A DNA stretch of 64,000 bases from Lentisphaerota bacterium (GTDB taxonomy: Bacteria > Verrucomicrobiota > Kiritimatiellia > UBA8416 > JAQBFJ01): contig JBFZFB010000166.1 in the NCBI GenBank assembly GCA_041306605.1, forward strand, positions 1,807 to 65,806, in the 5' to 3' direction. The position numbers and the translations under genes are program-made. Positions 7,701 through 40,905 of the stretch are shown in pieces (position 1 is the stretch's first letter; every line of letters begins with the position of its first letter). The notes under the pieces are model-generated. The model had not been told where the DNA came from. It searched no databases and saw only the letters and a list, made by a program, of their open reading frames with translations.

Positions 7701-7893
7701 TGCCGTGGCAAGCTGGGCAAAAGAACCGGTTACAATCAAGCTGGAACTGGACTGGAAGGCTGTCGGACTGAATCCGGCAAATGTTCACGCATCAATCCCG
7801 GAGATTGCCACGTTCCAGCAGGGTTCGACGTCGGTATCTTTAGATGCAATGACTATTGAGCCGAACAAAGGATTTATTGTGGTTTTGGAATAA
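4780..7893 (+). CDS. Large (1037 aa) unclassified glycoside-hydrolase-like protein (possibly GH123/DUF4091-like TIM barrel); apparent TTG start
   Basis: Long ORF with protein-like composition and no signal peptide. Starts at TTG 4780 after AGGAAAAA; the first in-frame ATG is about 400 nt downstream. Family assignment is weak and based only on general TIM-barrel-hydrolase-like motifs (LYLDGVTFDRP, WFGEGADYG). Confidence 0.5.
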   Translation: MKETDKNKPETTGYTSKHDRVPRGIARYGFGEWDRALGNHRAVIKVNQPGEAAYAYLPWRRHDAFPQAKHVRIVDGQTGNTITNSVVASNNREYGEIVFEPVSGSGIYYAYYLVPTSDRFRWVWPRSSFPVTMYETPHCEADNVWREKHNLRQKDISSTPDPKNWATQRNDCYPAPWRDLLEAELVEFQSRGEWHSFYPMEVIATLDERLELIKRCGNRPFLAFPESRFRPIRMNKDIPYHWAIRKGEELARLEEIAQRNEYLVFQIGVYAHMDILANLKATWSGLKGNGSRSIPASAITCFNLEGVNQHGQPFVKTVHVGAKEIQALWFGIDIPKNAKAGHYEGTVTITAQDCEPQTVTLVVNVENKVMVDRGDGDGTRLSRLRWLNSTYALDDLVCAPYTPVKVTGRSVGILGRKLELDMAGLPAHATSYIEMFRIRKEGREILSGPVRLDAVKGGKPLAWKTAIAAHCVKKSSGKAIFQSTQTASGLKRKIETTVEMDGRIGVRVTLEAKKATRLDAMRLCLKMPAGVSRYWLESAPPSWEVAGANKLAFECPAHTDKPLSAFQFAWIGDYNAGLCLSIDACPGPWRQGGTGGMFRQKTDSGICRIELDTGALTIEAGKALTLEFALYMTPFKPLSVEHWDWRYHHEGADLDIRKGLEAGAKVFTQHQGSPNNPYINYIFPVADTLKKMAETVHKNGGLFKAYNTIREQSTRTNELWALRSLGHEILVECTGNLGYESMAQLPLEYQLRNQVHEPFTGQLWMCEHLVDDYHSRWHSSIRNTGGALITEDSSVQISGASRWSNFYIESQRWLMENAGVDGLYLDGVTFDRPSFMRVRKTLVRQKPEALIDFHGSPAEVWDFFGFGDSLWFGEGADYGREAAYWLVAVSGIPFGIAGELLMAEGSCQRGMVYGISHRLGWTQADPSPLWKWWDNFEIHKAEMLGYWMQACPVKTNHPAVKATAYVHKGKRMAIAVASWAKEPVTIKLELDWKAVGLNPANVHASIPEIATFQQGSTSVSLDAMTIEPNKGFIVVLE

Positions 7894-18202: not shown

Positions 18203-18207
18203 TGTTT

Positions 18208-19389
18208 TCAACCACCAAAAGCTTTGCGCATCTTCTCGCAATAATACTGCACCAGTTCCCATTTCGCATCCGGCGGAATCCGGTGATCCGGACATGGAAT
18301 AAACCCGCCCAGCGCCACAAGCGGTTTCATACGCTCGACTTCCGCGTCAACTGCGGCTTTGTCATGCGCAAAAACAGTCTTGTTCATTCCGCCGACACCG
18401 CGGATATCCTTGCCGTATTTTTCACGCCACGGCGCGATTGAAGCATTCCATGTCCCGACCTCAATCGGAAACATCGTATTCACGCCGTTCTCGAGCCAGA
18501 TAGGAATCAGTGAATCGATCCACCCATCGCAATCGAGAGAAATGATATCGATCCCGTTAGCCTTCAACAGGTCGGTTATTCTTTTATAGTGCGGTCCCAC
18601 ATATTCAGCGAATATCGTCGGAACCACCAGCGGACCGTTCTTGAAACATATGTCCTCCCAGAAATGCGCAAAATCGAATTTCACACCTGATTCGAGGACT
18701 GTTTTGACTTTTCTGTAGCAGAGCATTCCCATTGTATCGATTATTTCACGATAGAGATCTTCATCATCCGCATACAAATAACTGATACCCTCAACTCCCA
18801 TGATATCACGGATATCACCGTAAAGACTTCCGCAATGAAGTCCCAGCGGATTCTTCCTTTCCTGCCCCTTTAGTTTCTGCAACGCCGCTTTATCAACGCG
18901 TTCTTCCTTCCATTCAAAACGCCTCTTGTAATGCTCTTCCCATGACGCACGGTCTTTCAACAGATGATCTATCTCAGCTGGAATCCCGCTTGCATTTGGA
19001 TTTTCCACAACAACCGAACCGAGATGATTCCTGACATGACGTGAACCATCTGGAAATTCTTTCAACACTTTTCTTTCAAATGACGGTATCAACCCGCTGT
19101 TGGAATAGAACATATTCTGCCAGTTGAAATCGAAACCCAGCTTCTGCGCGGCTATATCAGGATCATTCCCGTCCCCGCAGTGTTTCGCCTCCTCCTTCGT
19201 CAAATGCCCTTCCGCCGTCCACTTCTCGATCGTCTCCGTCCACCAGCCGAAATGAACCAGCGGCAAATGATCATATTTCTGATATCTTAAAACCGCCAAC
19301 GCTCTTTCCCTGTTTGTCATATATCCCCCTTTAGATTTTGCTCTCAAATTTATAAGTTCCCGAACCGACAGAAACGATCTTTCTTCCAC
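18208..19389 (-). CDS. URO-D/MtaA-superfamily TIM-barrel protein (paralog 3)
   Basis: 393 aa. The N-terminal NRERALAVLRYQKYDHLP is the URO-D-like signature. C-terminal block IDIISLDCDGWIDSLIPIWLENGVNTMFPIE. Confidence 0.65.
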   Translation of the reverse strand: MEERSFLSVRELINLRAKSKGGYMTNRERALAVLRYQKYDHLPLVHFGWWTETIEKWTAEGHLTKEEAKHCGDGNDPDIAAQKLGFDFNWQNMFYSNSGLIPSFERKVLKEFPDGSRHVRNHLGSVVVENPNASGIPAEIDHLLKDRASWEEHYKRRFEWKEERVDKAALQKLKGQERKNPLGLHCGSLYGDIRDIMGVEGISYLYADDEDLYREIIDTMGMLCYRKVKTVLESGVKFDFAHFWEDICFKNGPLVVPTIFAEYVGPHYKRITDLLKANGIDIISLDCDGWIDSLIPIWLENGVNTMFPIEVGTWNASIAPWREKYGKDIRGVGGMNKTVFAHDKAAVDAEVERMKPLVALGGFIPCPDHRIPPDAKWELVQYYCEKMRKAFGG

Positions 19390-21946
19390 CTTCTGCCGGT
19401 AGATGTATGTCAGCCTTACAGTTCACCGGGACAGTGACTTCCATTCTAAAGTAATTATCTTCCCGTTCCCAGTTACAGACAATCTTCCCGTACATGCTCT
19501 GATGCCAGGCCTTTACCCATTTCAAATCGCCGACGGGATTAGGGCGTATGATGATATTTTTAAAGCCGGGCTTTTCCGGATCCGGATTTATGCCGGCCAG
19601 TCCTTTATAAAACCACGCGCTGATATCGCTGTACATGTGATGATTGAGCGATGCACCCTTTGTCCAGCACTCCCACAAAGTGGTCGCGCCCTGCTTGATC
19701 CAGTTGCCCCAGCTGGGAAAATCTGTCTGCGTCGCAATAGCATACGCCAAGTCCGCCCTCCCGGCATCAGTCAGCACTTGCATCACATATTTCGTACCAA
19801 GAATACCACAGTCAATGTGCCTTTTGGCTTCTTCTACACAGCGAACCAGATGTTCAAGAATTTTATCCGCCTCTTTATTTTCCACCAACCCCTGATACAG
19901 CGCGCATGAATAGGAAGTCTGCGAATCACCGCTCACCTCGCTACTGCCGGCATCAATATATTTACGCCGGAACGCGGCGCGGACGGTCTTCGCGAGCCCG
20001 GCATACCGTTTCGCATCCGCCTTCTTGCCGAGCAGTCTCGCCGTCTCAGCCAGCACAACCGCATCGATATAGAAATAACCGGTCGATGTTACTTCAGCAG
20101 GACATTTCTGCTTCTCGGGCGGGGCCCAATCGCCGAGACCAAACTGAACCGTACCGTCCGGTGACATGCTTTCCATGAAGCTGACATATTTCTTCATGCA
20201 ATCGTACTGATCACGCAGAATCTGAATGTCACCGTCGTAAATATACATGTACCACGGAATCAGCACAGCCGCGCTGTCCCACGCCGGGCCGCTCCCCCAG
20301 TTGAACCCCCACCCGCCGGAAGGAACAATTCCCGGAAGCTGGCCTGTCCGCCGCTGACAATCACGTATATCCTGCATCCATTTAGCGTAGGCAGTCATCG
20401 GATTGAAATTCAGGAGCACCTGCTCCGCCGAAAGCAAAGCATCTCCGGTCCATCCATTCTTCTCGCGGTGCGGACAATCCGTCGGAATCCCGTGATAATT
20501 CCCAAGCGTGGCCCAGCGTGCACAGCGCTGGATATCGTTCAGCAGTTGATTCGAACACGAGAACTCACCGCGCGTCGCAAAATCCGTATACACCACACGC
20601 GCGTCGAGGCTGTCGAGTGTCGGCGTGCCCGGGAATCCTGTCACCTGCACATACTGGAATCCATGATATGTAAATCGCGGCTCCCACTCTTCAGCACCTG
20701 TTCCTTTCAGGATATAGCGGTCAGTCTGACAATCGCCGCTCTTGATGAAACACGCGATGTTACTCTGATCAATATCACCATCCGCGAAAACCATCTCCGA
20801 ATAACGCAACGTAACCTCGGTACCGGCCGGACCCTGCACCCTGAGCCTTGCCCAGCCTGAAATATTCTGCCCGACATCATAAACCCAAACACCTTCTTTA
20901 ACCTGCTTCAACCCGACAGGTTTCAGCGTCTTCGTGATCCGGATCGGAGTCATCTGCTGGCTTCTCAAAATGCCGCCCGGCGCCGCAATTATCTGGGCTT
21001 TCCGCCATGTGCTGTCGTCAAATCCCGGCGCCGCCCAGCCCGGCATTTCCAGCCGCGCGTCATACGTCTCACCGTTCCGTAAACCGTCAAACACGACCGG
21101 ACCCGTACCCGTACGCCAGCTCTCATCGGAACAGATGATCTCCTCTGTCCCGTTTTTGTACTTAACATGAAGCTGTAAAAGAAGTTTGGGCACATGCCGC
21201 CACGGCGCCTGCTTGAAATCCCAGACTTCCGCCGTATGACAGTCATACCAGCCGGTGCCGAGAATGACGCCAAGAACATTCTCCCCCTTCTTCAGCAGTG
21301 AAGAAACATCCCGCGTTTGATAATAAACTGTTTCATCATACTTACTGAACACCGGCGCCAGCACCTCATCGCCGGTTTTATTTCCGTTCACATAAAGCTC
21401 ATAATAACCGAGCCCTGAAACATAAACGCGCGCGGACTCAACCGGCCCTTTCAGCTTGAAACTCCTGCGCAGATGCGGAGCCGGTGGCGGATAATTCTTC
21501 GACTGAACCGAGGAAAACGCAATAGCCGGATCGTGCCGGATCCACTTTGCCATCCATTCCGACCCGGAAAGGAACGCCATTTCCCAGCAGGCCGTTTCAC
21601 TCCATTCACCCGGATTGCCCTTTACATCCCATACCTGCACCTTCCAGAAACAACGCTGACACGATGATAGCTTCTTTCCCTTATAGACAATATGGCATGA
21701 ATTCGACGACTTTACCTTCCCAGTATCCCAAAGATCTCCGCGGTTCTTCACCAGCGCTTTATCATCAGTCGCCACGAGAACTCTATATGCCGACTGCTTC
21801 TGCTCCTGCTCATCCGAAAAAAGCATCCAACCCAGCCTCGGCTGAAGCGTTTCCACGCCAAGCGGATCAGTCAAATAGTTACAAGTTAAATTCCCGATTT
21901 TCATTTTCTGTCTGATGGTTTTTCTTTTCACGTAATTTTTCCCCAT
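19331..21946 (-). CDS. GH78 alpha-L-rhamnosidase
   Basis: N-terminus MKIGNLTCNYLTDPLGVETLQPRLGWMLFSDEQEQKQSAYRVLVATD...LWDTGKVKSS...CFWKVQVWD is the classic bacterial alpha-L-rhamnosidase N-terminal domain. Length 871 aa is typical. Likely start is MKIGNL at about 21904. Confidence 0.85.
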   Translation of the reverse strand: MGKNYVKRKTIRQKMKIGNLTCNYLTDPLGVETLQPRLGWMLFSDEQEQKQSAYRVLVATDDKALVKNRGDLWDTGKVKSSNSCHIVYKGKKLSSCQRCFWKVQVWDVKGNPGEWSETACWEMAFLSGSEWMAKWIRHDPAIAFSSVQSKNYPPPAPHLRRSFKLKGPVESARVYVSGLGYYELYVNGNKTGDEVLAPVFSKYDETVYYQTRDVSSLLKKGENVLGVILGTGWYDCHTAEVWDFKQAPWRHVPKLLLQLHVKYKNGTEEIICSDESWRTGTGPVVFDGLRNGETYDARLEMPGWAAPGFDDSTWRKAQIIAAPGGILRSQQMTPIRITKTLKPVGLKQVKEGVWVYDVGQNISGWARLRVQGPAGTEVTLRYSEMVFADGDIDQSNIACFIKSGDCQTDRYILKGTGAEEWEPRFTYHGFQYVQVTGFPGTPTLDSLDARVVYTDFATRGEFSCSNQLLNDIQRCARWATLGNYHGIPTDCPHREKNGWTGDALLSAEQVLLNFNPMTAYAKWMQDIRDCQRRTGQLPGIVPSGGWGFNWGSGPAWDSAAVLIPWYMYIYDGDIQILRDQYDCMKKYVSFMESMSPDGTVQFGLGDWAPPEKQKCPAEVTSTGYFYIDAVVLAETARLLGKKADAKRYAGLAKTVRAAFRRKYIDAGSSEVSGDSQTSYSCALYQGLVENKEADKILEHLVRCVEEAKRHIDCGILGTKYVMQVLTDAGRADLAYAIATQTDFPSWGNWIKQGATTLWECWTKGASLNHHMYSDISAWFYKGLAGINPDPEKPGFKNIIIRPNPVGDLKWVKAWHQSMYGKIVCNWEREDNYFRMEVTVPVNCKADIHLPAEGGRKIVSVGSGTYKFESKI

Positions 21947-25509: not shown

Positions 25510-26688
25510 CTATTTCCTGATTAAATAAGGTGTTTTATTCAGACGTTCAGCTCCGGTCTTGGTCACCAGAAAACCGTCTTCGACACGTAAGCCGCCCCAC
25601 GGTGTATTGAACATGGGTATATCAATCGAAATCACCATGTCCGGTTTTAACACGGTTTTTGAGCTCGGCCCGAAAATTGGAGCCTCAAATTCAATTACAC
25701 CAACGCTGTGAATGCCGGAATAAAGAAAATAATTTCCCAGCCCGGCATCAGTCATAATACCGCGCCCTATACCTTCCACAATACAGCCCTCTATTCCCGG
25801 TTTTATTGCCTTAAAACACAATGCCTGCGCCTTATTTGCGGCATAAACAGCTTCGATAAGTTTCGGATGCGGCCTGCCTACAATAACCGGCCTTGCGATT
25901 GCCGCATGATAACCTTCATACCGCGGCGCTAAAGTCAGCACTACCAGATCGTTTTTCCCGACCTTGCGCATGGTCGTGCGCGCGAGAATCGGACGCGTGT
26001 TCGGCCCCGACGCAACTATAGTATCAATCCCCATCCCTTCTGATCCCATTCTGCGCATCGCGTATTCCGCTTCCGCCGCTATCTCCCGTTCCGTAACGCC
26101 GGGCTTTATAACTTTCACCGCCGCCGCAAACCCTGCTTCCGCTATTTTGTAGGCGTACTTTATCACCGCAATCTCAGCAGGCGTCTTTATCGCGCGCAAT
26201 GCAAGCACCTGACTTTCCGCGTCTATCCACTTCGCTAACGGCAATGCTTTCCTGAACGACTCCACCAGCTCGCTGTTCATTAAAGATTTTCCTGCCAACC
26301 CGGCGCGTTTTACGGCTTTAGGGTTTTTGGCAACTTCGCGAACAATTTCCGCCAATCCCTGAATTTTAGAGAACGGATAATCCTCGTCAGGATGCGTGAA
26401 CTCGCGCAGAACGCGGACATCGCTTATCTGCCCAACGTGTCTGGCATACTCGTCACTTTCCGGCCCGCAGAGAAGAATCGGTTTGCCGGATGGAAAGATA
26501 AGAATACACACAGGCTCGAAATGAGCCGGATAATCCGCCAGCCAGCGGCCATGCGCCGGACCATACGCCGCCCTGTCATCCGCGTATGCAATGAGAATAT
26601 CCAGCTTCTGCGCGCGCATCATGTTTTGAACTTTTTTCCAGCGCAACGGGTACTCGTTTGGCGGTATTATCGGCATATTTCTCTTCAT
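25510..26688 (-). CDS. M24-family Xaa-Pro aminopeptidase/dipeptidase
   Basis: 392 aa with a creatinase-like N-terminal domain and an M24 catalytic domain. The C-terminal region ends with the typical ...ISIDIPMFNTPWGGLRVEDGFLVTKTGAERLNKTPY. Confidence 0.8.
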   Translation of the reverse strand: MKRNMPIIPPNEYPLRWKKVQNMMRAQKLDILIAYADDRAAYGPAHGRWLADYPAHFEPVCILIFPSGKPILLCGPESDEYARHVGQISDVRVLREFTHPDEDYPFSKIQGLAEIVREVAKNPKAVKRAGLAGKSLMNSELVESFRKALPLAKWIDAESQVLALRAIKTPAEIAVIKYAYKIAEAGFAAAVKVIKPGVTEREIAAEAEYAMRRMGSEGMGIDTIVASGPNTRPILARTTMRKVGKNDLVVLTLAPRYEGYHAAIARPVIVGRPHPKLIEAVYAANKAQALCFKAIKPGIEGCIVEGIGRGIMTDAGLGNYFLYSGIHSVGVIEFEAPIFGPSSKTVLKPDMVISIDIPMFNTPWGGLRVEDGFLVTKTGAERLNKTPYLIRK

Positions 26689-26691
26689 CTC

Positions 26692-27732
26692 TTATTTCCT
26701 CCCTGCTTTTTCTGTGTATTCACGGAACAGTTTTATATAAATTTTATAATTCCCCAGAGAAACACCCGGCGGAGTCTGATGATCAACCGATGGAATAAAT
26801 CCGCCCGATTTCATTACCGGAAGAAGCCGCTCAAATTCAGCGCGCATCTCTTTTTCGCCTTTAGACATAACCATTTTATCATACGCGCCAAGCATCAGAA
26901 ATTTGGGATATCTTTGACGTATTTTAGCCACATCAACACCCGCTTGTCTCTCAAGCGGATAAACACCCTCTATCCCGGCTTCTTCCATCCACGGGATCAT
27001 CTCCGTGATGTCACCATCACTGTCAATAAGAACCTTTGTGCCGGATTTCTTCAGAACCGGAATCAGCTTCTGATAATAAGGCAACAGAAACTCTTTAAAC
27101 AGTTCATACGACAACATCGAACCGTGATTATAAGACATGTCCTCGGCCAAACCGATCATGTCCGGTTTCAAAACAGGAAACAGCGCTTTCATGGCCCGGA
27201 TATGAAACTCCGTAAGATCACTGTTGATTCTGTGCATGAGCTCGGGATAGTCATAGAACGCGTAAAGATGTTTTTCGATTCCGAAAAGCGTTCTGGGAAA
27301 CCAGAAAAAACCGTCCAGCCAGATACGGATGATGATCTCGCCCCTCTCGTGCTGTTCACGCCGATTCATAACGTCTTTCATCAAACCTTCTATTGATTCA
27401 TCAGTGTACAAATACGGAAGTATGGCTTCGTACGTTTTCTCATCTTCTATTATACCGGCGCCATGTGACGCCGGATTAGGACACTTGCCTGATCTCGGGC
27501 CAGCTCCCAAACAGATCATCTTATCTATTCCAAAGTACGTATGAGAACCATCCCATGTGGTATCCTGAGGCATGCCTTCTTTCTTCCAGCGATCAATAGT
27601 CAGATCCCACCACGCGGCCCACTCCACCATAGGCAAACGGTCAAACGGCCTGAAATCCAGCGCCGCATTAAATCTTTCGCGACAATTCATTTCCTTCATC
27701 CTTTTCACGCCTTTCCGCAATATAACAAACAC
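26692..27732 (-). CDS. URO-D/MtaA-superfamily TIM-barrel protein (paralog 4)
   Basis: N-terminus MNCRERFNAALDFRPFDRLPMVEW and C-terminal block KVLIDSDGDITEMIPWMEEAGIEGVYPLE. Separated by only 3 nt from the M24 peptidase gene. Confidence 0.65.
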   Translation of the reverse strand: MFVILRKGVKRMKEMNCRERFNAALDFRPFDRLPMVEWAAWWDLTIDRWKKEGMPQDTTWDGSHTYFGIDKMICLGAGPRSGKCPNPASHGAGIIEDEKTYEAILPYLYTDESIEGLMKDVMNRREQHERGEIIIRIWLDGFFWFPRTLFGIEKHLYAFYDYPELMHRINSDLTEFHIRAMKALFPVLKPDMIGLAEDMSYNHGSMLSYELFKEFLLPYYQKLIPVLKKSGTKVLIDSDGDITEMIPWMEEAGIEGVYPLERQAGVDVAKIRQRYPKFLMLGAYDKMVMSKGEKEMRAEFERLLPVMKSGGFIPSVDHQTPPGVSLGNYKIYIKLFREYTEKAGRK

Positions 27733-28693: not shown

Positions 28694-28993
28694 ATGATAA
28701 AAATTGACGATATTAAAAAAATAGCATTACCGGCGTGTCGGACATTCAATGTGCGCCGGCTGGATGCTTTTGGATCAATCGCGCGAGGCACCGCCTCGTC
28801 ATCAAGCGATGTAGATATGATTGTCGAATTCACCGAGCCTGACAAAAATCCAGCAAAACGTTTCTTTGGTCTTCTTCATCAGTTGGAGGACTCTTTGGGT
28901 TGCAATGTTGACCTCATCACCATAAACAACTTGCGAAATCCTTATTTCAAGACACATATCCTGAAAGAAAGGATTCTCATTTATGAAGGATGA
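28694..28993 (+). CDS. Minimal nucleotidyltransferase (MNT/MntA-like, HEPN-MNT antitoxin-type), orphan
   Basis: 99 aa with FGSIARGTASSSSDVDMIVEF, the GS-x9-13-D-x-D polymerase-beta-superfamily NTase motif. No HEPN (Rx4-6H) partner ORF detected on either side. Confidence 0.75.
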   Translation: MIKIDDIKKIALPACRTFNVRRLDAFGSIARGTASSSSDVDMIVEFTEPDKNPAKRFFGLLHQLEDSLGCNVDLITINNLRNPYFKTHILKERILIYEG

Positions 28994-29144: not shown

Positions 29145-31370
29145 ATGAAAAAAAACTGCTCTTATTCAATTATTCTCACGATCCTGACCATGCTTATTAT
29201 CAATTCCTCAACTCTACCCTCTGCCGTCGCCGAAGTGAGCCTTCCTAAAATATTCGGCAGTCACATGGTTCTCCAGCAGGAACAGCCTATCACCATCTGG
29301 GGCTGGGCCAATCCAAATGAAAAAATAACCGTGCAACTGTCATCCCAAACACAAGAAGTGCAGGCAAATGAAAAAGGAGAATGGAAAGCCATCCTGCCGG
29401 CACTGAAAGCTGGCGGCCCTCATACACTCACCGTCAAAGGATCAAACATAATCACATTCGAGGATGTACTTGTAGGCGAAGTATGGCTGTGCTCCGGACA
29501 ATCTAACATGGAAATGGGTATGACTATAATTCAGAACGGTCAGCAGGAAACTGCGGCCGCCAATTACCCCGATATCCGTCTCCTTATGGTGGCCAACCGC
29601 TGGACGCCTGAACCGCAGAAAGATATTGAAGGAACCTGGAAAGCATGCACGCCGGAATCCGCCGCCGAAGGCGGCTGGGGCGGCTTTTCAGCTTGCGCCT
29701 ACTTCTTCGGACGCGAACTGCACAAAACACTGAAAGTGCCGATCGGCCTGATTGACGCCACCTGGGGCGGCACACGCATCGAATCATGGACACCGCCTGA
29801 AGGTTTCGCTGCGGTTCCAACATTTAAAAATGATCTCAACCTCATCCTGATGGGCAACCCCGGCTCTTCTGTTCACAAACAACGCCTCGAACATCTTTTC
29901 CGGCAAACAGAGGAATGGATTTCCGCGACAAAAACCGCCATGAGCAAAGACCTGCTTGAATCTCCAATGCCGGCATACCCGCCTGAACTCGTTTTCCCGC
30001 GCGACCTGCAGAATCCCACCGCGCTCTACAACGGAATGATCCACCCGCTTTGTCCGTTCGTATTGCGCGGCGCCATCTGGTATCAGGGCGAATCGAACAA
30101 CGGCGAAGGCATGCTTTATGCCGAAAGAATGAAAGCTCTCATCGGAGGCTGGCGCAGTATCTGGTCCGCAAAAAATGGCGAATACCCCTTCTACTTCGTC
30201 CAGATCGCGCCGTTCCAGTACGGTATTTACAACATGCCCTCACAGACTGAACAGGAGTTGTGGGAAGCACAGGCGGCCGTGGCAAGGGAAATACCCGGCA
30301 CCGGTATGGCGGTTATAAACGACATCGGCAACATAAAGGACATCCATCCGGTCAACAAACAGGATGTAGGCAAGCGGCTCGCCATGATGGCGCTGGCAAA
30401 AACTTACGGCAAAAAAGACATCGTCTACTCCGGACCGGTTTTCAAGGATATGAAAATCGAAGACAATAAACTCCGTATAAGTTTTGACCACACCGGCAGT
30501 GGACTTGCCAGCCGCGACGGCAAACCGCTCGACTGGTTTGAAATCGCAGACACTGACGACGGATGGTTTGTCAAAGCCGACGCTGTAATAGACGGGGAAA
30601 CAGTTGTTCTTTCAGCCGCCGGTGTCAACAAGCCGGTTGCAATGCGCTTCGCATGGGACGAGACAGCTGTTCCCAACCTGATGAACAAGGACGGGCTCCC
30701 TGCCGGCTCTTTCCGTGCAGGCACAATACCACAGCGCGACTGGATGAGCGCGAATGTGCCGGAAGCAAAAAATTTCACACTTGTCTATGACCTTGATCTC
30801 GCCAAACTAGCACATGATATCAAGTATGATACGGATAATCACACCTCAATCAGCAAGCCGTTCGACCGCATAGCATACAGCCTTGAACTGCAGGGGGGAA
30901 CAGGAAGCATGCAGTGCGTGTATGTCTCAATGGATGCTTTCACGCAGGATCCCGCCAAAATTGGCATTCCGTCCGCTAAATCCGGATCGTTTTTCCAGCA
31001 GAGTATAACCAATATGAACGTTTTCTCGAACGTAAAAGGCATCACCACTGGTATTGGCCTTGCCAGCGGCAATATCGAATTATGGCCGCACAACTATGCC
31101 CAACTCAACACGGCAAATGTGCCTAACGCGTCCGGACAGATATATGACTGCGGCGACCAGCCTGTCGAACCACTGGACGGCTACGGCTCCATGCAGATTC
31201 ACAACAATGAAGCCAAACAGACACTGCTGGCAATCAATCACTGGCCGGCAGGCGTAAACGCCGATATAGGCATTGGGAACAGGGCGTCAGACAACACCGA
31301 CTGGGCATTCGCGGGCAACGCCCAGTCTTTCAAACTCAAACGCCTGCGCGTACTGGTCCACTGCAAGTAA
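29145..31370 (+). CDS. Secreted SGNH/DUF303 esterase (sialate O-acetylesterase-like) with extra C-terminal beta-sandwich-like domain
   Basis: The ORF track gives 29064..31370. Preferred start is ATG 29145 (MKKNCSYSIILTILTMLIINSSTLPSAVA, signal peptide, AGGGA RBS). Signature GEVWLCSGQSNMEMG and later WYQGESN as in 9-O-acetylesterase/DUF303 enzymes. Confidence 0.75.
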   Translation: MKKNCSYSIILTILTMLIINSSTLPSAVAEVSLPKIFGSHMVLQQEQPITIWGWANPNEKITVQLSSQTQEVQANEKGEWKAILPALKAGGPHTLTVKGSNIITFEDVLVGEVWLCSGQSNMEMGMTIIQNGQQETAAANYPDIRLLMVANRWTPEPQKDIEGTWKACTPESAAEGGWGGFSACAYFFGRELHKTLKVPIGLIDATWGGTRIESWTPPEGFAAVPTFKNDLNLILMGNPGSSVHKQRLEHLFRQTEEWISATKTAMSKDLLESPMPAYPPELVFPRDLQNPTALYNGMIHPLCPFVLRGAIWYQGESNNGEGMLYAERMKALIGGWRSIWSAKNGEYPFYFVQIAPFQYGIYNMPSQTEQELWEAQAAVAREIPGTGMAVINDIGNIKDIHPVNKQDVGKRLAMMALAKTYGKKDIVYSGPVFKDMKIEDNKLRISFDHTGSGLASRDGKPLDWFEIADTDDGWFVKADAVIDGETVVLSAAGVNKPVAMRFAWDETAVPNLMNKDGLPAGSFRAGTIPQRDWMSANVPEAKNFTLVYDLDLAKLAHDIKYDTDNHTSISKPFDRIAYSLELQGGTGSMQCVYVSMDAFTQDPAKIGIPSAKSGSFFQQSITNMNVFSNVKGITTGIGLASGNIELWPHNYAQLNTANVPNASGQIYDCGDQPVEPLDGYGSMQIHNNEAKQTLLAINHWPAGVNADIGIGNRASDNTDWAFAGNAQSFKLKRLRVLVHCK

Positions 31371-31373
31371 TAT
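31299..31373. repeat. Direct repeat copy A (~75 bp) = authentic 3' end of esterase gene 29145..31370
   Basis: gactgggcattcgcgggcaacgcccagtctttcaaactcaaacgcctgcgcgtactggtccactgcaagtaat. It is about 77% identical to copy B at 32003-32075, including a 36-bp perfect core ttcaaactcaaacgcctgcgcgtactggtcca(c/t)t. Confidence 0.85.
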
Positions 31374-31444
31374 TCATGAAATCCTTCGCGAATAGCGCGC
31401 CGATCCGCGTTATTACTGATAATTTAAAATTAAAACAAGAAGAC

Positions 31445-31479: not shown

Positions 31480-31767
31480 ATGAAATTGCTGAGATTTGAA
31501 TGGGATGAAACAAAGAATCTGGAGAATCATCGCAAGCACGGTGTATCATTCCTTGAAGCTCAAACGGTTTTCTTCGATGAAAATGCCATTGAATTTTACG
31601 ACGATGAGCATTCCGAATGGGAAGACAGATTTTTGCTCCTTGGACTAAGCACCAAGTTAAGAGTGTTACTGGTTTGTTATTGCCTGCGCAAAAAGGGCTC
31701 TGTCATCCGGATCATTTCTGCAAGAAAAGCCACAAAAAAAGAACAGGAACTATACCCCAAGAGGTGA
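31480..31767 (+). CDS. brnT: BrnT-family (DUF497) type II toxin, ribonuclease
   Basis: 95 aa, MKLLRFEWDETKNLENHRKHGVSFLEAQTVFFDENAIEFYDDEHSEWEDRFLLLGLS...IISARKATKKE. The FEWD-x-K-x-x-N-x-x-KHG-V-x-F-x-EA motif is diagnostic of BrnT. Confidence 0.8.
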   Translation: MKLLRFEWDETKNLENHRKHGVSFLEAQTVFFDENAIEFYDDEHSEWEDRFLLLGLSTKLRVLLVCYCLRKKGSVIRIISARKATKKEQELYPKR

Positions 31768-31770
31768 ACT

Positions 31771-31989
31771 ATGAAAAACGAATACAACTTAAGCAGAATG
31801 AAAAGCCGGCCAAATCCATATGCCAAGCGGCTCAAAAAGCAATTAACGATCCGCATGGGCGTGGATATCATCGATTATTTCAAGACCATGGCGGCACAAA
31901 CCGGCATACCCTATCAAAATCTGATCAACCTGTATCTCAGAGAATGCGTCATCACGCGGCGGAAGTTGCAGATAAAGTGGGCGTCATAA
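31771..31989 (+). CDS. brnA: BrnA-family antitoxin (RHH/CopG-like)
   Basis: 72 aa, 3 nt after the brnT stop. Typical BrnA size and composition (KSRPNPYAKRLKKQLTIRMGVDIIDYFKTMAAQTGIPYQNLINLYLRE), and the usual toxin-first brnTA order. Confidence 0.7.
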   Translation: MKNEYNLSRMKSRPNPYAKRLKKQLTIRMGVDIIDYFKTMAAQTGIPYQNLINLYLRECVITRRKLQIKWAS

Positions 31990-32002
31990 GATAAATAATC
32001 AG

Positions 32003-32075
32003 GACTGGACATTCTCCGGCAATGCCGGGTCATTCAAACTCAAACGCCTGCGCGTACTGGTCCATTATAAATAAT
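32003..32075. repeat. Direct repeat copy B (~73 bp) = orphan, in-frame, diverged esterase C-terminus (…DWTFSGNAGSFKLKRLRVLVHYK*)
   Basis: gactggacattctccggcaatgccgggtcattcaaactcaaacgcctgcgcgtactggtccattataaataat. It translates to a variant of the esterase tail DWAFAGNAQSFKLKRLRVLVHCK* (4 substitutions, stop conserved), so it looks like the scar of a lost paralog rather than a target-site duplication. Confidence 0.8.
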
Positions 32076-32130
32076 TTACAAAAGCCGGTTTTTATGCGTA
32101 TTGTATAAATACAGGAAATTAAGGGTTTGA

Positions 32131-33021
32131 ATGAACAATTTTCGATATGACACATCAGGGCACTGGTACAAAGGTAACACTCACATCCACAGCACCGCGT
32201 CAGACGGCGGATGCGACTTTAAAAAGCTCGCCGCCATGTATCATTCTGCCGGCTATGATTTTCTGTTCCGCACCGACCATTGGATAACATCAGACACGAA
32301 AGGCGATACAGAGCCTTATCCCCTGCTCTGGCTGGATGGAATGGAAATGGACGGACAGGACCATTCGGGCTCTTATTTTCACGTGGTATGCCTGGGCCGG
32401 GTAACCGGCGTAAAACGCGAGGACGGATTAGAGGCTGGATTGCAGTCCGCGCGCCGGCAGGGAGCGCTGACCGTTGTTGCCCACCCGCACTGGTGTGGCA
32501 ATTCATTGGAAGACTGCCAGCGATTGCAATTTGACGGCATTGAAGTGTACAACCATGTATGTCAGTGGCTCAACGGCAAGAGCAATGGCTTGGTACACTG
32601 GGACGCCGCCCTCATGTCCAATCCCGATACACTGGCGTTCGCGTCGGATGACGCCCACCTGTGCCCCGAACACCCCGGATGGAACGGAGGCTGGATCATG
32701 GTCAACGCCCCGGAATGCACATATACCGGAATCATGAACAGCATTCACCGCGGTAATTTTTACTCAACCTGCGGCCCTGACATCTATTCACTGTCATTCG
32801 ACGGAACCAATCTGCACGCGACTATGTCACCCGTGCGTTTCGCCCGATTGGTCGGGCCTGGCGCTAACGGCATGAGAACCGGTTCTTTCGATGGAAAACT
32901 GATCGAAACCGTCAGCTTTCCCCTTCCGGACGACTGGAAATATGTCTATCTCGAAATCGAAGACGAACATGGCCGCAGAGCATGGACTAATTCACTGTTC
33001 ACAAAAAATGGTAATCATTAA
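32131..33021 (+). CDS. PHP-domain metal-dependent phosphoesterase/hydrolase (CehA/McbA-like)
   Basis: 296 aa. N-terminal GNTHIHSTASDGGCDF matches the PHP H-x-H...S-D-G motif, with later His/Asp ligands (VVAHPHW, DDAHL). Its stop at 33019-33021 abuts the ATG 33022 of the next gene. Confidence 0.7.
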   Translation: MNNFRYDTSGHWYKGNTHIHSTASDGGCDFKKLAAMYHSAGYDFLFRTDHWITSDTKGDTEPYPLLWLDGMEMDGQDHSGSYFHVVCLGRVTGVKREDGLEAGLQSARRQGALTVVAHPHWCGNSLEDCQRLQFDGIEVYNHVCQWLNGKSNGLVHWDAALMSNPDTLAFASDDAHLCPEHPGWNGGWIMVNAPECTYTGIMNSIHRGNFYSTCGPDIYSLSFDGTNLHATMSPVRFARLVGPGANGMRTGSFDGKLIETVSFPLPDDWKYVYLEIEDEHGRRAWTNSLFTKNGNH

Positions 33022-34119
33022 ATGCAAACATCACGCGATATCATAGACGGTCTTTTCAGGAACAAACCTGTTGAACGCTTGGGATTATACGACTCGCCAT
33101 GGGACGACACCTTTACAAAATGGGTCAAAGAAGAATCATACCCGGCGGATGATAAAGGAAATCCGGTAAACGCAACAGATTTCTTCAATTTCGACATGAG
33201 CGGTTGCGGAGGATGGTTCAACAAGATGCCGATCAAGGACCAAAACGAGATCATTGAAGAATCCGACGAATGGAAGGTAACTCGTAACGGAGCCGGCGCC
33301 GCTTTGAAATACTGGAAACATAAATCCGGCACACCGGAACACATAGACTTCCGCATGACATCCCGCGCTGTCTGGGAAAAAGATTACCGCCACCATCTGC
33401 TCGCCGTTGACAGTTCGCGACTCAACACAGAAAGCACTAGAGAAAACCTGAAAAAACAGCAGGCAAATAATCGCTGGGCATTCTACGGCGACTTGTTCAT
33501 CTGGGAAATGATGCGCTGCAGTCTTGGCGATATATGCATGTACGAATCACTTATTCTCGATCCTGAATGGATTCACGACTACAACCGGGTCTATACCGAT
33601 TTCTTCAAAGCGCACTACAAGATACTTATTGAAGAAGCCGGCAAACCGGACGGAATCTGGCTCTATGAAGATCTCGGCTTCAATAAGGGCCTGTTCTGCT
33701 CACCATCCATTCTCGAGGAACTGATCTTCCCCTACTACAAAGAAATGGTGGATTTCTTCCACAGTTACGACCTGCCCGTTGTTCTGCATTCGTGCGGCGG
33801 CATAAAGGAAGCACTGGGTTTGATTGTCGGAGCCGGATTCGACGCGCTTAACCCCATGGAAGCAAAAGCGGGATGTGACGTCATCTCATTCGCCAAACAA
33901 TACGGCGATAAACTGGCGTTCGTAGGAGAAATGGACGCGAGAATTTTCGAGGCGGGCAATAAAGATCAAATCCGCAAAGAAGTTATACGCCTGTGCACAT
34001 CACTAAAAGATATCGGCGCGCGTTACGTTTTCGGATCCGATCATTCCATATCACCGAATGTGAAACTGGAAAATTTTAAATACGCCATTGATATATACAG
34101 AGAAAACATGATGTATTAA
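33022..34119 (+). CDS. URO-D/MtaA-superfamily protein (paralog 5) with an MtaA-like H-x-C...C putative zinc site
   Basis: 365 aa. N-terminus DIIDGLFRNKPVERLGLY. C-terminal VVLHSCGGIKEALGLIVGAGFDALNPMEAKAGCD carries H-x-C-G plus a downstream Cys, as in corrinoid:CoM-type methyltransferases (MtaA/MtbA). The other four paralogs have Asp/His at these positions. Translationally coupled to the PHP gene. Confidence 0.65.
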   Translation: MQTSRDIIDGLFRNKPVERLGLYDSPWDDTFTKWVKEESYPADDKGNPVNATDFFNFDMSGCGGWFNKMPIKDQNEIIEESDEWKVTRNGAGAALKYWKHKSGTPEHIDFRMTSRAVWEKDYRHHLLAVDSSRLNTESTRENLKKQQANNRWAFYGDLFIWEMMRCSLGDICMYESLILDPEWIHDYNRVYTDFFKAHYKILIEEAGKPDGIWLYEDLGFNKGLFCSPSILEELIFPYYKEMVDFFHSYDLPVVLHSCGGIKEALGLIVGAGFDALNPMEAKAGCDVISFAKQYGDKLAFVGEMDARIFEAGNKDQIRKEVIRLCTSLKDIGARYVFGSDHSISPNVKLENFKYAIDIYRENMMY

Positions 34120-34298
34120 CCGCCGGATTTGGCATAAGAATTAAGCCCTTTGCAGAAAGAATTTGGCAGGACTTGTCCTATCGAACCAGTCATGTCGAAA
34201 GACGTGATAACAGGATTTATCATGTCTTTTCCCCTGAAAACAAACCCGACACTCACTGTTTCCTGATAAAATTATTGTTCAATATCACACGCGCAGAG

Positions 34299-35453
34299 TT
34301 AAGCCCTGCCTTTTCGCGCCAGCACACCTTCCACCTTCGGCATGTACTTGCTCCAGTGATCCATGAACCTGAGCTGTCTTTCCGCTTTTTTCCGCATCTC
34401 TTCCCGGTTGGACTCAAGAGCCACATGAATGTTTCCCAGAAATCCTTTCGCCTCTTCAGGATCGCTGTCTATATAGAGCTGAGCCGCCTGCGTAAACGCC
34501 GTCACCGCTTTCTGCTCAAGATCATCCTGCAGGAAATATCCGAAAAACACGCCAAGATCCTTCCCCTGCACGCCAAGCAGTTTCATCTTCTCACGCAGAT
34601 ATTTAAAACGCCTTACATCCGAACGCATGCGCGCCCAAAACCGCTTACCGCGTTTCGGGGGCAGATGCGTGACCCACATGTTCTGATCAAACACATACGC
34701 GAATCCCTTATAATGCGCCTGTATCACATAATCATCATCCTCGCCGCGCGGCAGGGCAATCTGATCATACGGCACATGCAAAAACAGCTTGCTGTTTATG
34801 GCCATGTTCCCGCCGAAAGCCACATGACAATCCGTGATGGGGCCCTTTCTCTGAAACGCCTGCTTCACAGCCGCGTTGAACAAATCATCTTTGGGCCATG
34901 TTTCGAACGGAACTTTAACCTGACCGTCATAAAATTTACTGCCTTTCGCGTCAATATAGTAACCGCTCTTGCCGTAAATCGTTTTACCCTTGAACTTCTT
35001 GCCCATATCGCCAAGCGCCTTCTTCATATAGCTCGGATCATCAATAATCTCATCGTCATCAACTTGTATGACATTGTCAAACCCGCGCGTAATGGCATAC
35101 ATGAGCGACATATTCCGCAAACGTCCGTACATGTTCATATTGAAAACATCTTCATACGAAGAAGGAAAGCCCGCCTTCATGAGCGCCTTCCAGATTCCTT
35201 TTATGTCCTCACCCGTCAAAACATGAACATCAAGCGGAAACCGCTTCGCGATTTTCTGAAGATGTTTTTCAATAACCGGATTTGTCGGACCGGGAAACAA
35301 AAGAACATGATCCTTAATCCCGCGTTTCACAAAGTTGGCAAGCATGCGAGGAACCTCACCCTCCTGAGAAACGGGTGTCGGATGATCATAAAGTTCCCAA
35401 GCACCGTCTTTTCCTGTCGTCCAACACGTATACACCGCTATACAATTTCGCAT
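34299..35453 (-). CDS. Putative GT-A-fold glycosyltransferase (DxD/DDD motif), family unassigned
   Basis: 384 aa with protein-like composition. VIQVDDDEIIDD and GEDDDY acidic motifs are typical of nucleotide-sugar transferases. The overlapping 449-aa plus-strand ORF is His/Arg/Phe-rich and judged spurious. Confidence 0.45.
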   Translation of the reverse strand: MRNCIAVYTCWTTGKDGAWELYDHPTPVSQEGEVPRMLANFVKRGIKDHVLLFPGPTNPVIEKHLQKIAKRFPLDVHVLTGEDIKGIWKALMKAGFPSSYEDVFNMNMYGRLRNMSLMYAITRGFDNVIQVDDDEIIDDPSYMKKALGDMGKKFKGKTIYGKSGYYIDAKGSKFYDGQVKVPFETWPKDDLFNAAVKQAFQRKGPITDCHVAFGGNMAINSKLFLHVPYDQIALPRGEDDDYVIQAHYKGFAYVFDQNMWVTHLPPKRGKRFWARMRSDVRRFKYLREKMKLLGVQGKDLGVFFGYFLQDDLEQKAVTAFTQAAQLYIDSDPEEAKGFLGNIHVALESNREEMRKKAERQLRFMDHWSKYMPKVEGVLARKGRA

Positions 35454-35555
35454 ATATCCATCTCCTCCCTGTTTTTATGTTGCCGCTTTATATCACATTG
35501 TTTTTTGTTTTTGCATCCATAACTTAATAATTTTTCATCACCCGAAAAACCCGTA

Positions 35556-36290
35556 TTAATTCCCCGGCATAGGCACTTTTTCAGGCTCATTGTCCTTCGG
35601 TGACTCTTTCTTTGAATCCTCCGTGGTGTCTTCCATGGTATTCTCTGATTCTTTCACGGTTTTCACCAGCTCAGCCCAGATATAAGCGCCGATTTCCGGA
35701 TTACCCAACGGCGGACGGTACGCGATGAATATGCAGTCCGTTTCAACCATCATTGCAATATACATGGAATAAAACCGCTTCCGGGTGCTTTTCTCCTCCA
35801 CATCGAGAAAAATAACCTGACAACCATTAACAACAACCCGCTCGCTCTTGAGCACCTGATATCCGGAAATAGACAACACATGTCTGAGCGAATAGCCGTT
35901 GTCTCCGAAAAACTCATTGGTAACCTTGTCGTAACCAACTGATTCGGACTTGTTTCCGTAAATCCATCCGGTGTCCTGCGGCAGTTCCTGTGTAACCTGC
36001 ACCTGATAAATCTTATTGGACGGCATCCAGTATGAAAACGCGGGCATATTTCTCACACCAACATACACATAATTTTCTGGTATGCTTAAAGTTACCGGCA
36101 TCTTAACGCTCAACTGACCGCCCATAAATTCGTTAAGCGATACCTGCTTAAGAGGAATGTCAACTACCTCGCCGCCGGGCAGTTTAACCGAAGAAGTGGA
36201 GCATCCTGCCGAAACAACCACCATAAGCATGATGATAAATATTTTATTCACCTTTTGTTCAACCCCTATCGCCATAAAATAATCAGACAC
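35556..36290 (-). CDS. Hypothetical lipoprotein
   Basis: N-terminal hydrophobic stretch ending in a lipobox-like VVSAGCSTSS. The start codon is uncertain (an internal ATG or GTG a few codons downstream of 36290 is possible). Confidence 0.45.
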   Translation of the reverse strand: MSDYFMAIGVEQKVNKIFIIMLMVVVSAGCSTSSVKLPGGEVVDIPLKQVSLNEFMGGQLSVKMPVTLSIPENYVYVGVRNMPAFSYWMPSNKIYQVQVTQELPQDTGWIYGNKSESVGYDKVTNEFFGDNGYSLRHVLSISGYQVLKSERVVVNGCQVIFLDVEEKSTRKRFYSMYIAMMVETDCIFIAYRPPLGNPEIGAYIWAELVKTVKESENTMEDTTEDSKKESPKDNEPEKVPMPGN

Positions 36291-40056: not shown

Positions 40057-40905
40057 TCACTGCAGTTTTTTATCAGATTCTTTTTCTTTGAGATAGTTAT
40101 GTTTTGAGATAATCGGGCGTTTCAGTCGTTTTTCCAGAGCCTTCCGCGCATTCCCGGCTATTTTGCCGCCAGCATGAGCATCGTCTTTTAATTTTGGCAT
40201 TCCCTCCGAATCTTCCGTGCGGTGTATTTCCGTTGTCGCACGCTCTCCAAGCATTGTGAATATCAGCTCAAAATCATCCATGTGATCTCGCAGGTTTTCC
40301 CGTTTCAGCCCTTTCAGCTTCTTGTATTCGTTCGGAGTAACACCAAATGCCGCCTTTGATATCTGGGCTGTCAATATCTCGTAATCCTTGTCCTCCCGCG
40401 CCCCTCGTTTCTGCCATTCGTCAGTCAATTCTTCTCTAATAGCAATGCCGCGCATACGCTTTTCAATCCAGTCGTCGCTGTATCCTTTGAGCTTATACAA
40501 CATCCTTGTACGCTTTGAGGCAAGTTCAGGATCTTCTATTTCCTGCACCCGCTCGTAGCCCACCTTCGCCAGCCATCTCTTGAACGGCTCGGCTTTCGGG
40601 GAGGGAATGGATTGAATTAACCGGAATATGCCTTCGGTATTCCAACAGTACATTTTCTGCTTTCCACCCGCAGTGTCCACTTCAAGCATAAGGGGTGGTA
40701 CAAAGTGTACCCCTCCTTTGGCGAGAAGTTCCGACAGCTCCTTCTCCCTCTCTTTTAATCGTTTGAAATATTGTGCAGGATCTGTGGATCCAGTTAATGA
40801 TTCAATAATGTCATTGATCACAAACCACCATTCGTTCTGGTATAACATTTTTCTGATCTGTTTGCCTTTGAATAAAGCTATTCGTGTATCTTTTTCCGTA
40901 CTCAT
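40057..40905 (-). CDS. DinD-like DNA-damage-inducible protein (Bro-N domain plus DinD C-terminal domain)
   Basis: 282 aa. The N-terminus IALFKGKQIRKMLYQNEWWFVINDIIESLTG is Bro-N-like. The C-terminal KGLKRENLRDHMDDFELIFTMLGERATTEIHRTEDSEGMPKLKDDAHAGGKIAGNARKALEKRL parallels E. coli DinD (KGLKKNQKILDHMGSTELAANLFRATQTEEKLKRDG...). Recalled from memory, not searched. Confidence 0.55.
   Translation of the reverse strand: MSTEKDTRIALFKGKQIRKMLYQNEWWFVINDIIESLTGSTDPAQYFKRLKEREKELSELLAKGGVHFVPPLMLEVDTAGGKQKMYCWNTEGIFRLIQSIPSPKAEPFKRWLAKVGYERVQEIEDPELASKRTRMLYKLKGYSDDWIEKRMRGIAIREELTDEWQKRGAREDKDYEILTAQISKAAFGVTPNEYKKLKGLKRENLRDHMDDFELIFTMLGERATTEIHRTEDSEGMPKLKDDAHAGGKIAGNARKALEKRLKRPIISKHNYLKEKESDKKLQ

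Follow-up and report, generated by a model that had tools for sequence, protein, structure and literature searches.

The UroD fold serves O-, S- and halomethane-demethylating MT-I enzymes (PMC10418091; PMC13222342), and CdmB (PDB 9RUI), a zinc-free enzyme with this fold whose role lies outside haem synthesis and methanogenesis, shares the gene cluster cdmBCA with its corrinoid protein and MT-II (PMC13222342). To count among the gene clusters of 'MtaA-like proteins' (Mlp), a protein must be >25% identical to a CoM methyltransferase and have a corrinoid protein encoded next to it (PMC10418091). Among enzymes with the PHP fold, those of the CehA/McbA type hydrolyze carbamate pesticides (PMC8292978, PMC5141477). 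In the 64,000-nucleotide stretch of DNA analyzed here (the window), a PHP-fold gene, termed ORF A, and a gene of the UroD/MtaA superfamily, termed ORF B, lie end to end on the forward strand. With moderate confidence, we favor an account in which this end-to-end pair belongs to one lineage, ORF A would be a hydrolase, ORF B would be a mononuclear-metal barrel enzyme, and the substrates would be glycan-derived. The pair and its upstream region comprise the following features:

32003 to 32080, forward strand: 78-nt remnant copy of the 3' end of the SASA-esterase gene that lies upstream, 83% identical to 31299-31376
32075 to 32104, forward strand: promoter-like site TTTACA-18-TATTGT, which precedes the start of ORF A by 27 nt and has 9 of 12 consensus matches
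32131 to 33021, forward strand: ORF A, 296 aa, predicted cytoplasmic two-domain PHP-fold metallohydrolase (CehA/McbA-type domain and C-terminal beta domain)
33019 to 33024, forward strand: TAA-ATG junction, at which the ORF A stop abuts the ORF B start, with a Shine-Dalgarno-like sequence absent upstream
33022 to 34119, forward strand: ORF B, 365 aa, predicted cytoplasmic UroD/MtaA-superfamily TIM barrel with the signature H-x-[C/D]...E...D-H

The sequence across the junction is ...AAT CAT TAA-ATG CAA..., with the ORF A stop ending at 33021 and the ORF B ATG at 33022. This is as the original prediction had placed them, and the gene identities that it assigned, a PHP enzyme followed by a URO-D/MtaA-like protein, are also correct for the fold and motifs of ORF A and for the family of ORF B. 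The start of ORF B is backed by an N-terminus, M-Q/K-T/S-S..., that is kept across 33 orthologs. One relative (L032) has the identical abutting arrangement, and an unpaired ORF B ortholog at 87% identity (L027) instead carries its own AAGGA upstream. The zero-nucleotide TAA-ATG spacing, together with the lack of a Shine-Dalgarno sequence for ORF B, suggests selection for co-expression. A single transcript probably carries both genes, and ribosomes that finish ORF A would re-initiate at TAA-ATG to translate ORF B, in which case the two genes would be translationally coupled. A promoter consensus scan found 8 sites in the region versus 4.4 expected, which is weak evidence for the site at 32075-32104; the stretch is kept in L032 and L033, both of them close relatives.

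The original prediction further suggested that the two genes form a two-enzyme unit, and at orthologous loci the genes proved to be separate. A PHP gene was found beside none of 24 ORF B loci at 48-87% identity (20 orthologs scanned within 6 kb, plus P0002, P0004 and P0006, the last in two MAGs), and an ORF B ortholog was found beside none of 83 loci of PHP orthologs. The pair was seen only in L001, which is the same sequence, and in L032, where the two genes are 92% and about 96% identical. Since ORF A and ORF B each occur on their own in almost every other lineage, their pairing is not obligate, and their adjacency is confined to the source lineage.

It is a serious, if doubtful, possibility that this adjacency arose by chance and carries no functional meaning, island shuffling next to a toxin-antitoxin insertion hot spot having joined two unrelated stand-alone genes. 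Such an origin would suit a pair limited to near-identical relatives, with the 87% ortholog in L027 unpaired, and the toxin-antitoxin cassettes and duplicated 78-nt remnants bear witness to recent rearrangement. A BrnT/BrnA cassette (31480-31989) sits between the two 78-nt copies, which implies that ORF A once lay directly after the esterase gene. The junction itself argues against a mere accident, as do the neighborhoods of the PHP family. Of the 98 immediate-neighbor ORFs there, more belong to PF01208 than to any other family (8 ORFs, at 7 of 65 loci; families counted over all long flanking ORFs). The neighborhoods that combine PHP and UroD-like genes represent about five independent arrangements with assorted UroD-like genes. 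Measured against a genome-wide frequency of <=1%, the enrichment has p = 7e-6 for 8 of 98 ORFs and p = 0.003 for the five independent events, whereas against the local background of 2 in 77 beside ORF B orthologs it is not significant (Fisher p = 0.10), a result that again suits shuffling. The counts are suggestive of a looser link between PHP and UroD-like neighbors and do not establish it. We retain the reading that two real, uncharacterized cytoplasmic metalloenzyme genes came to lie end to end in the source lineage only.

The glycan genes of the window include GH95, GH78, GH106, GH116, GH123 and SASA esterases, and sulfatase, GH2, GH38, GH29 and AraC genes occur near the orthologs. The neighbors of ORF B orthologs are heterogeneous, with housekeeping genes among them, so that the link to glycans is loose. 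The host lineages come mostly from anoxic habitats. Because PHP genes recur beside UroD-like genes and both occur amid glycan genes, the two enzymes probably draw on a shared pool of glycan-derived small molecules.

ORF A scored 85 bits against the NCBIfam model NF038032 (CehA/McbA), passing the cutoff of 80 by a narrow margin, with a match that spans residues 11-229 of ORF A and positions 1-231 of the 315-position profile. A Pfam scan of ORF A at E <= 0.01 found no family, PHP PF02811 included, and the precomputed Pfam entry is '-' for nearly all ORF A orthologs. For the AF2 model (pLDDT 87), the best Foldseek matches in the PDB were BVU_3505 (3e38), TM0559 (2anu) and the PHP domain of RNase AM, with a Foldseek probability of 1.0 against 3e38, 2anu and 7ug9. 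Like CehA/McbA, TM0559, BVU_3505 and RNase AM, ORF A has the PHP fold and the HxH...D...E...H...H...D.H motifs, and it shares the two-domain layout of BVU_3505; it differs from the solved PHP structures in that identity is only 15-19% and the Pfam PHP model misses it. The residues H18, H20, D25, D49, H50, E72 and H84 are invariant in 34 orthologs, and H118, H142, D173, D174 and H176 are likewise invariant. These residues would map one to one onto the PHP metal ligands. As the full His/Asp/Glu set of the PHP metal cluster is kept, ORF A most likely hydrolyzes an ester, with a phospho-, carboxyl- or carbamate-type bond predicted. The named PHP enzymes cleave carbamate pesticides or nucleic-acid phosphoesters.

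ORF B belongs to the UroD superfamily by its UroD-type barrel and by a Pfam PF01208 (URO-D) domain score above gathering, the match covering residues 177-361 only and leaving the N-terminal half unmatched. ORF B is neither MtaA nor UroD. Its scores against TIGR01463, NF040654 and NF041608 were 31.4, 19.8 and 25.6 bits, below the respective cutoffs of 235.4, 400 and 600; overall, the MtaA/CmuA models gave 31-34 bits versus 235-244 and 20-26 bits versus 400-600. From MtaA/MtbA (MT2; PDB 4AY7) it is set apart by scores far under the family cutoffs, by an identity of 13-14% to 4ay7, by a beta-rich insertion at residues 59-110 in the AF2 model, and by the absence of CoM genes and of a corrinoid partner. 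Against hemE (TIGR01464) the score was 16.5 bits with a cutoff of 302.95, and the N-terminus of ORF B, MQTSRDIIDGLFRNKPVERLGLYDSPWDDTFTKW, lacks the motif PxWxMRQAGR, which we take to be the N-terminal substrate-binding signature of UroD/hemE. UroD (HemE/UROD) shares 12-16% identity with ORF B and has neither the H-x-C nor a metal. MetE matches the fold of ORF B far less closely and, unlike ORF B, has a two-barrel architecture and a Cys as its last ligand, where ORF B has His. ORF B is like CdmB in its fold and in lying outside haem synthesis and methanogenesis, and neither the zinc-free state of CdmB nor its cdmBCA gene arrangement appears to hold for ORF B. Placement of ORF B in the Mlp clusters was rejected on its identity of 13-14% and the absent corrinoid neighbor. 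It is a member of a large uncharacterized clade with the signature H-x-[C/D]...E...D-H, comprising 1757 clusters at 50% identity (E <= 1e-10); at the looser E <= 1e-3, the UroD-superfamily clade comprises 5385 clusters (50% identity) from many phyla.

Two motifs of ORF B, LHSCGG and AGCD, had been taken to mirror the His-Cys-Cys zinc site of MtaA. Both are present, and with the other candidate residues they lie as follows:

33787 to 33795, forward strand: H256-S-C258 (LHSCGG), aligned with the H-x-C zinc ligands of MtaA
33859 to 33861, forward strand: E280, aligned with the first Glu of VEE in MtaA
33874 to 33876, forward strand: C285, the Cys of AGCD, aligned with a Ser of MtaA and no conserved ligand
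34039 to 34044, forward strand: D340-H341, with H341 at the Cys of PGCG in MtaA and equal to the His of NLGHG in UroD

The H-x-C part of the comparison stands, as H256 and C258 pair up with the H-x-C of LHICG in MtaA (4ay7). The downstream Cys does not fall on a zinc ligand: C285 aligns with Ser, and the second zinc Cys of MtaA (PGCG) corresponds to His341 in ORF B. The ligands of MtaA from M. mazei are presumably numbered His240, Cys242, Glu263 and Cys319. The C-terminal sequence of MtaA was rebuilt by phmmer walking along 4ay7 with chimeric queries, and because such alignments are artificially anchored, the mapping was re-tested by unanchored hhalign. Comparison of a 79-sequence ORF B profile with the pure MtaA fragment gave a probability of 95.8% and E = 6.9e-9, and phmmer and hhalign agree in pairing H256 with His, C258 with Cys, E280 with Glu, C285 with Ser and H341 with the Cys of PGCG. 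A homolog search for full MtaA sequences with a 42-aa MtaA fragment recovered none.

Conservation follows the same pattern. The H256-x-C258 motif is invariant in 34 orthologs. All 77 wider relatives keep H256, and 40 of them have Cys at position 258 while 35 have Asp; contrary to the earlier claim, the H-x-C is thus not unique to one paralog. E280 is kept in 71 of these 77 relatives, D340 in 75 and H341 in 72, and the D-H-S motif around the last two is nearly invariant. Of the 34 orthologs, 18 have Cys and 16 have Asn at the position of C285, and among the 77 wider relatives the commonest residues there are Met (41), Asn (13) and Leu (7), with Cys in only 5. In the AF2 model, H256/C258, E280, D305, D340/H341 and D217 each lie 1-4 residues past successive strands.

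The alignment of the H-x-C and E280 with MtaA makes a metal site at the MtaA position of ORF B plausible, and the exchange of Cys and Asp at position 258 beside an invariant His is as expected of a metal-ligand position. As aligned, the clade keeps three of the four metal positions of MtaA and MetE, with the last Cys replaced by His and the second position either Cys or Asp. We propose that one divalent metal (Zn2+ or Fe2+/Mn2+) would be bound by His256, Cys258, Glu280 and His341 and, like the metal of MtaA and MetE, would serve as the Lewis acid for a heteroatom of the substrate, and that the Cys of AGCD would have no role. ORF B is most likely a mononuclear-metal enzyme of glycan-derived catabolism.

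An MtaA/MtbA-type methyltransferase, in which zinc held by H256, C258 and C285 activates a thiol or other nucleophile and which forms a conserved unit with the PHP enzyme, is very improbable. The aligned H-x-C, the weak matches to MtaA/CmuA models and the abutting stop and start speak for it. Against it, C285 is unconserved and aligned with Ser, the position of the second zinc Cys of MtaA is His, the scores are far under the cutoffs at 13-14% identity to 4ay7, and the pair is absent at all orthologous loci except one near-identical relative. The initial finding is mostly deflated, as there is neither a methanogen-type His-Cys-Cys site nor a conserved two-enzyme unit.

H341 could instead be an acid/base residue and not a ligand, because UroD keeps the equivalent His without binding metal. 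In a rival reading, ORF B would need no metal: it would be a decarboxylase in the style of UroD, or another acid/base enzyme, whose substrate is a carboxylated sugar or a small aromatic, with H256, C258, E280, D340 and H341 as substrate-binding or general acid/base residues. We regard this as unlikely, since four of the residues coincide with metal positions of MtaA and MetE, the Cys/Asp swap at 258 near an invariant His suits a ligand better than a catalytic thiol, the hemE score is 16.5 bits against a cutoff of 303, and the N-terminal substrate motif of UroD is absent. The window also contains paralogs of ORF B:

26692 to 27732, reverse strand: full-length UroD-like paralog, with D-x-D (IDSDGD) replacing the H-x-C of ORF B
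18208 to 19389, reverse strand: full-length UroD-like paralog, with D-x-D (LDCDG) replacing the H-x-C of ORF B
3 to 521, reverse strand: third paralog, which runs past the window edge

MT-I genes are normally clustered with their own corrinoid protein. B12-binding Pfam families were absent from the window ORFs that were scanned and from the top neighbor families of the fetched loci, and a crude scan for the motif DxHxxG...SxL...GG over 113 loci totaling 736 kb gave one doubtful match only. The earlier claim that no corrinoid gene is nearby accordingly holds for the window and the fetched loci. This weighs against the proposal that ORF B and its paralogs are the MT-I components of corrinoid-dependent, oxygen-independent O-demethylases whose corrinoid protein and activase are encoded elsewhere, although His-off types would escape the scan. 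The substrates would in that case be methyl-ether sugars (for example 2-O-methyl-fucose, 2-O-methyl-xylose or methyl-rhamnose) freed by the neighboring GH95, GH78 and GH106 enzymes. Demethylating MT-I enzymes do use the UroD fold (PMC10418091; PMC13222342), several paralogs sit inside glycoside-hydrolase operons, the host habitats are mostly anoxic, and the putative metal site could activate an ether oxygen. CdmB (9RUI) is the sole PDB sequence match of the paralog at 26692-27732, at a non-significant E = 0.37. On balance we consider an MT-I role improbable. A literature search on UroD-like genes in polysaccharide loci, on PHP with UroD, and on corrinoid demethylation of methylated sugars yielded nothing usable.

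More speculatively, and with a low likelihood in our estimation, the PHP family and the H-x-[C/D]...E...D-H barrels, with their D-x-D relatives, would constitute an unrecognized decoration-stripping toolkit of anaerobic glycan degraders. Such a toolkit may be metal-dependent, oxygen-independent and possibly corrinoid-independent, removing non-glycosidic decorations of sugars, such as methyl ethers or phospho-, carbamoyl- or other esters, and each of the many paralogs may be tuned to one decorated sugar through a metal-ligand swap, Cys or Asp. If these proteins are metal-dependent sugar modifiers, for example in anaerobic demethylation, they would close a gap in our understanding of how decorated polysaccharides are handled by anaerobes. 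The lasting value of the locus is the precise definition of a very large unstudied clade of the UroD superfamily, for which H256, C258, E280 and H341 are direct targets for mutagenesis.

The original prediction had counted four other paralogs in the window. Two full-length ones were verified, both with D-x-D, and the third is partial, its motif region lying outside the window because the gene crosses the edge. The ORF at 15916-17031, considered as a fifth paralog, showed no detectable relationship and was rejected, with an absent Pfam match and an hhalign probability of 0.1%. As a separate observation, UroD-like genes are multiplied inside the glycan-degradation islands of PVC-type bacteria.

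The two genes under study are arranged as follows.

32131..33021 (+), ORF A, PHP-fold metallohydrolase gene, 296 aa
33022..34119 (+), ORF B, UroD/MtaA-superfamily barrel gene, 365 aa
32075-32104, promoter-like hexamer pair

The original prediction had the ORF A stop at 33021 abutting the ORF B start at 33022, and the junction sequence, AAT CAT TAA/ATG CAA, bears this out: the last base of the stop codon is followed directly by the ATG. That ORF B truly starts here is shown by its first residues (M-Q/K-T/S-S-R-E/D-V/I-I-D), which are kept across 33 orthologs. Neither translation, read directly, carries an N-terminal signal-like segment, and the genes are not separated by a terminator-like site. 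There is no Shine-Dalgarno-like sequence upstream of ORF B (AAAAAATGGTAATCATTAAATG), whereas AAGGA stands at -11 to -7 in an unpaired ortholog of 87% identity, a difference that would fit termination-reinitiation coupling in the window.

The Pfam URO-D match in ORF B is limited to residues 177-361, and the curated MtaA/CmuA, MtbA, MtaA and hemE models all score an order of magnitude under their cutoffs; ORF B was therefore placed in the superfamily but in no named family. The great size and diversity of this superfamily are known (PMC10418091), and UroD-fold methyltransferases without zinc exist (PMC13222342). Our literature searches found no description of the clade or its ligand pattern. Named relatives belong to Verrucomicrobiota, Victivallales/Lentisphaeria, Planctomycetota, Anaerolineae, Hydrogenedentota, KSB1 and further groups, and the host is probably a PVC-group bacterium.

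A zinc site formed by H256, C258 and C285 (of 'AGCD') had been proposed by likeness to the methylcobamide:CoM methyltransferase MtaA. In MtaA, zinc is bound by His240, Cys242 and Cys319, and Glu263 lies close by. The family profile aligned ORF B 'VVLHSCGG...ALNPME' with MtaA 'TVLHICGN...GLSVEE', the MtaA sequence for the C-terminal ligand being recovered from PDB alignments. As an independent second route, a profile of 79 diverse relatives was aligned profile-to-sequence with the pure MtaA fragment (probability 95.8%, E = 6.9e-9), and the residue mapping was identical by both routes.

ORF B residues: MtaA counterpart (both alignment routes); state in 34 orthologs; state in 77 full-length representatives of 24-60% identity
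H256: His of 'LHICG'; invariant; 77/77
C258: Cys of 'LHICG'; Cys invariant; Cys 40, Asp 35 (alignment A8)
E280: first Glu of 'VEE'; invariant; 71/77
C285: a Ser; Cys 18, Asn 16; Met 41, Asn 13, Leu 7, Cys 5
D340: (none listed); invariant; 75/77
H341: Cys of 'PGCG'; invariant; 72/77

Thus the H-x-C part of the proposed likeness stands, but C285 falls on a Ser and is unconserved. At the last position MtaA has the 'PGCG' Cys whereas ORF B has H341; here ORF B 'FGSDHSISP' pairs with MtaA 'LAPGCGIAP' and with UroD 'FNLGHGLAP'. The mapping and the conservation counts together define a constellation H-x-[C/D] ... E ... D-H. In the ORF B model each conserved residue lies 1-4 residues past successive barrel strands, on the side of a TIM barrel where catalysis usually takes place. 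The near-even split at position 258 suggests that a single family contains members with two different metal preferences.

One rival reading makes ORF B a metal-free UroD-like decarboxylase. An exchange of Cys for Asp next to an invariant His is, however, the behaviour expected of a position that binds a metal. In the best supported reading, ORF B would hold one divalent metal through His256, Cys258, Glu280 and His341, which would serve as a Lewis acid toward a heteroatom of the substrate after the manner of MtaA and MetE, and ORF A would be an ester hydrolase, co-expressed with ORF B in this lineage without forming an obligate pair.

For ORF A, no Pfam match was found, and the CehA/McbA metallohydrolase domain (NCBIfam) was just passed, at 85 bits against a cutoff of 80. 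The best structural matches of its AF2 model (input, 34 orthologs; pLDDT 87) were PHP-fold: two-domain BVU_3505 (3e38), TM0559 (2anu) and the RNase AM PHP domain. Across orthologs of 62-92% identity, H18, H20, D25, D49, H50, E72, H84, H118, H142, D173, D174 and H176 are invariant, which is, at the level of sequence, the pattern of a predicted complete PHP metal centre. Carbamate esters are the substrates of CehA and McbA, the characterised enzymes that give the domain its name (PMC8292978, PMC5141477). Phosphoesters are hydrolysed by other PHP enzymes. ORF A has a family placement only, with no substrate assignable.

The predicted two-enzyme unit is refuted as a conserved pair of orthologs, since the genes are separate in orthologous loci. 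No PHP homolog was found within 6 kb of ORF B orthologs (48-72% identity) at 20 genome loci, nor beside the 72% ortholog, the 71% ortholog (seen in two MAGs) or the 87% ortholog, where the 85 nt upstream are non-coding. Likewise, no ORF B ortholog lies beside PHP orthologs on three long contigs or at 80 metagenome loci. The same abutting pair occurs only in a contig of identical sequence and in one near-identical relative, L032 (ORF A 92%, ORF B about 96% identical). The striking parts of the earlier claim thus do not survive, leaving a well-defined family without functional assignment.

Such separation would suit a purely accidental adjacency, against which the neighbours of PHP orthologs may be set. 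Among 98 ORFs within 600 nt of PHP orthologs (65 loci), URO-D was the commonest Pfam family (8 ORFs in 7 loci), followed by sulfatase (5). These UroD-like neighbours belong to several subfamilies (H-x-C, H-x-D and D-x-D types at the first motif) in about five independent arrangements. Against a genome-wide frequency of at most 1% the enrichment gives p = 7e-6 for all 8 ORFs and 0.003 for 5 independent events; against 2/77 URO-D neighbours around ORF B orthologs it is not significant (Fisher p = 0.10). The association is a lead, not a result. At one metagenome locus (L048: 2-772, 963-1835, 1799-2962) UroD-like genes flank the PHP ortholog on both sides, and in two others (L103, L105) two different UroD-like genes stand in tandem ahead of it.

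A further alternative is that ORF B is a corrinoid-dependent sugar O-demethylase with partners encoded elsewhere. The pair lies in a glycan-degradation island (about 500 to 40000, housekeeping genes after) containing an AraC regulator, GH116, GH123, a radical-SAM/SPASM maturase, two SASA-type esterases, a WbsX-like protein, GH78, GH106, GH95 and an M24 peptidase. As originally noted, no corrinoid protein is nearby: window scans found no B12-binding family, and searching all 114 sequences (736 kb) for the motif DxHxxG...SxL...GG yielded a single doubtful match, which weakens the case for a putative locally encoded corrinoid system. Neighbours of ORF B orthologs are mixed (sulfatases, AraC, GH2, GH38, GH29, GFO/IDH/MocA oxidoreductases, tRNA synthetases), and no conserved partner gene was found among them. 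The maturase-type gene (7856-9097, +) is of the anaerobic sulfatase-maturase type, yet the scan of window ORFs turned up no sulfatase.

The window also holds UroD-like paralogs, both full-length ones with D-x-D at the first motif and with E and D-H kept.

26692-27732 (-), UroD-like paralog, D-x-D type, ending three bases before the M24 gene
25510-26688 (-), M24 (creatinase/prolidase-type) metallopeptidase gene
18208-19389 (-), third UroD-like paralog, 'LDCDG' type, inside a glycoside-hydrolase operon
3-521 (-), fourth UroD-like copy, truncated at the window edge

The first two genes make a second tight UroD-like and metallohydrolase pairing, with a strong GGGAGG Shine-Dalgarno inside the last codons of the paralog. 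The third paralog lies between GH78 (19331-21946) and the WbsX-like gene (17099-18295), with overlapping ORF calls on both sides.

Upstream of ORF A, the 3' end of the SASA-esterase gene is duplicated as a 78-nt direct repeat (31299-31376 and 32003-32080, 83% identical), whose two copies enclose a toxin-antitoxin cassette (31480-31989). The two genes of the cassette are followed in the list by two genes from elsewhere in the window.

31480-31767, BrnT toxin
31771-31989, BrnA-like antitoxin
28694-28993 (+), small MNT-type nucleotidyltransferase, likely toxin-antitoxin part
40057-40905 (-), Bro-N domain protein

ORF A probably once followed the SASA-esterase gene directly. Since L032 keeps the 78-nt remnant with different upstream sequence, the site looks like an insertion hot spot. 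Convergent to ORF B are two genes, 34299-35453 (-) and 35556-36290 (-), neither with a Pfam or NCBIfam match; the 384-aa product of one contains a 'VDDDE' segment that recalls GT-A glycosyltransferases, and the 449-aa ORF read from the opposite strand (34173-35522) is probably not a real gene. The MNT-type and Bro-N genes suggest mobile-element traffic both inside the glycan island and at its edge.
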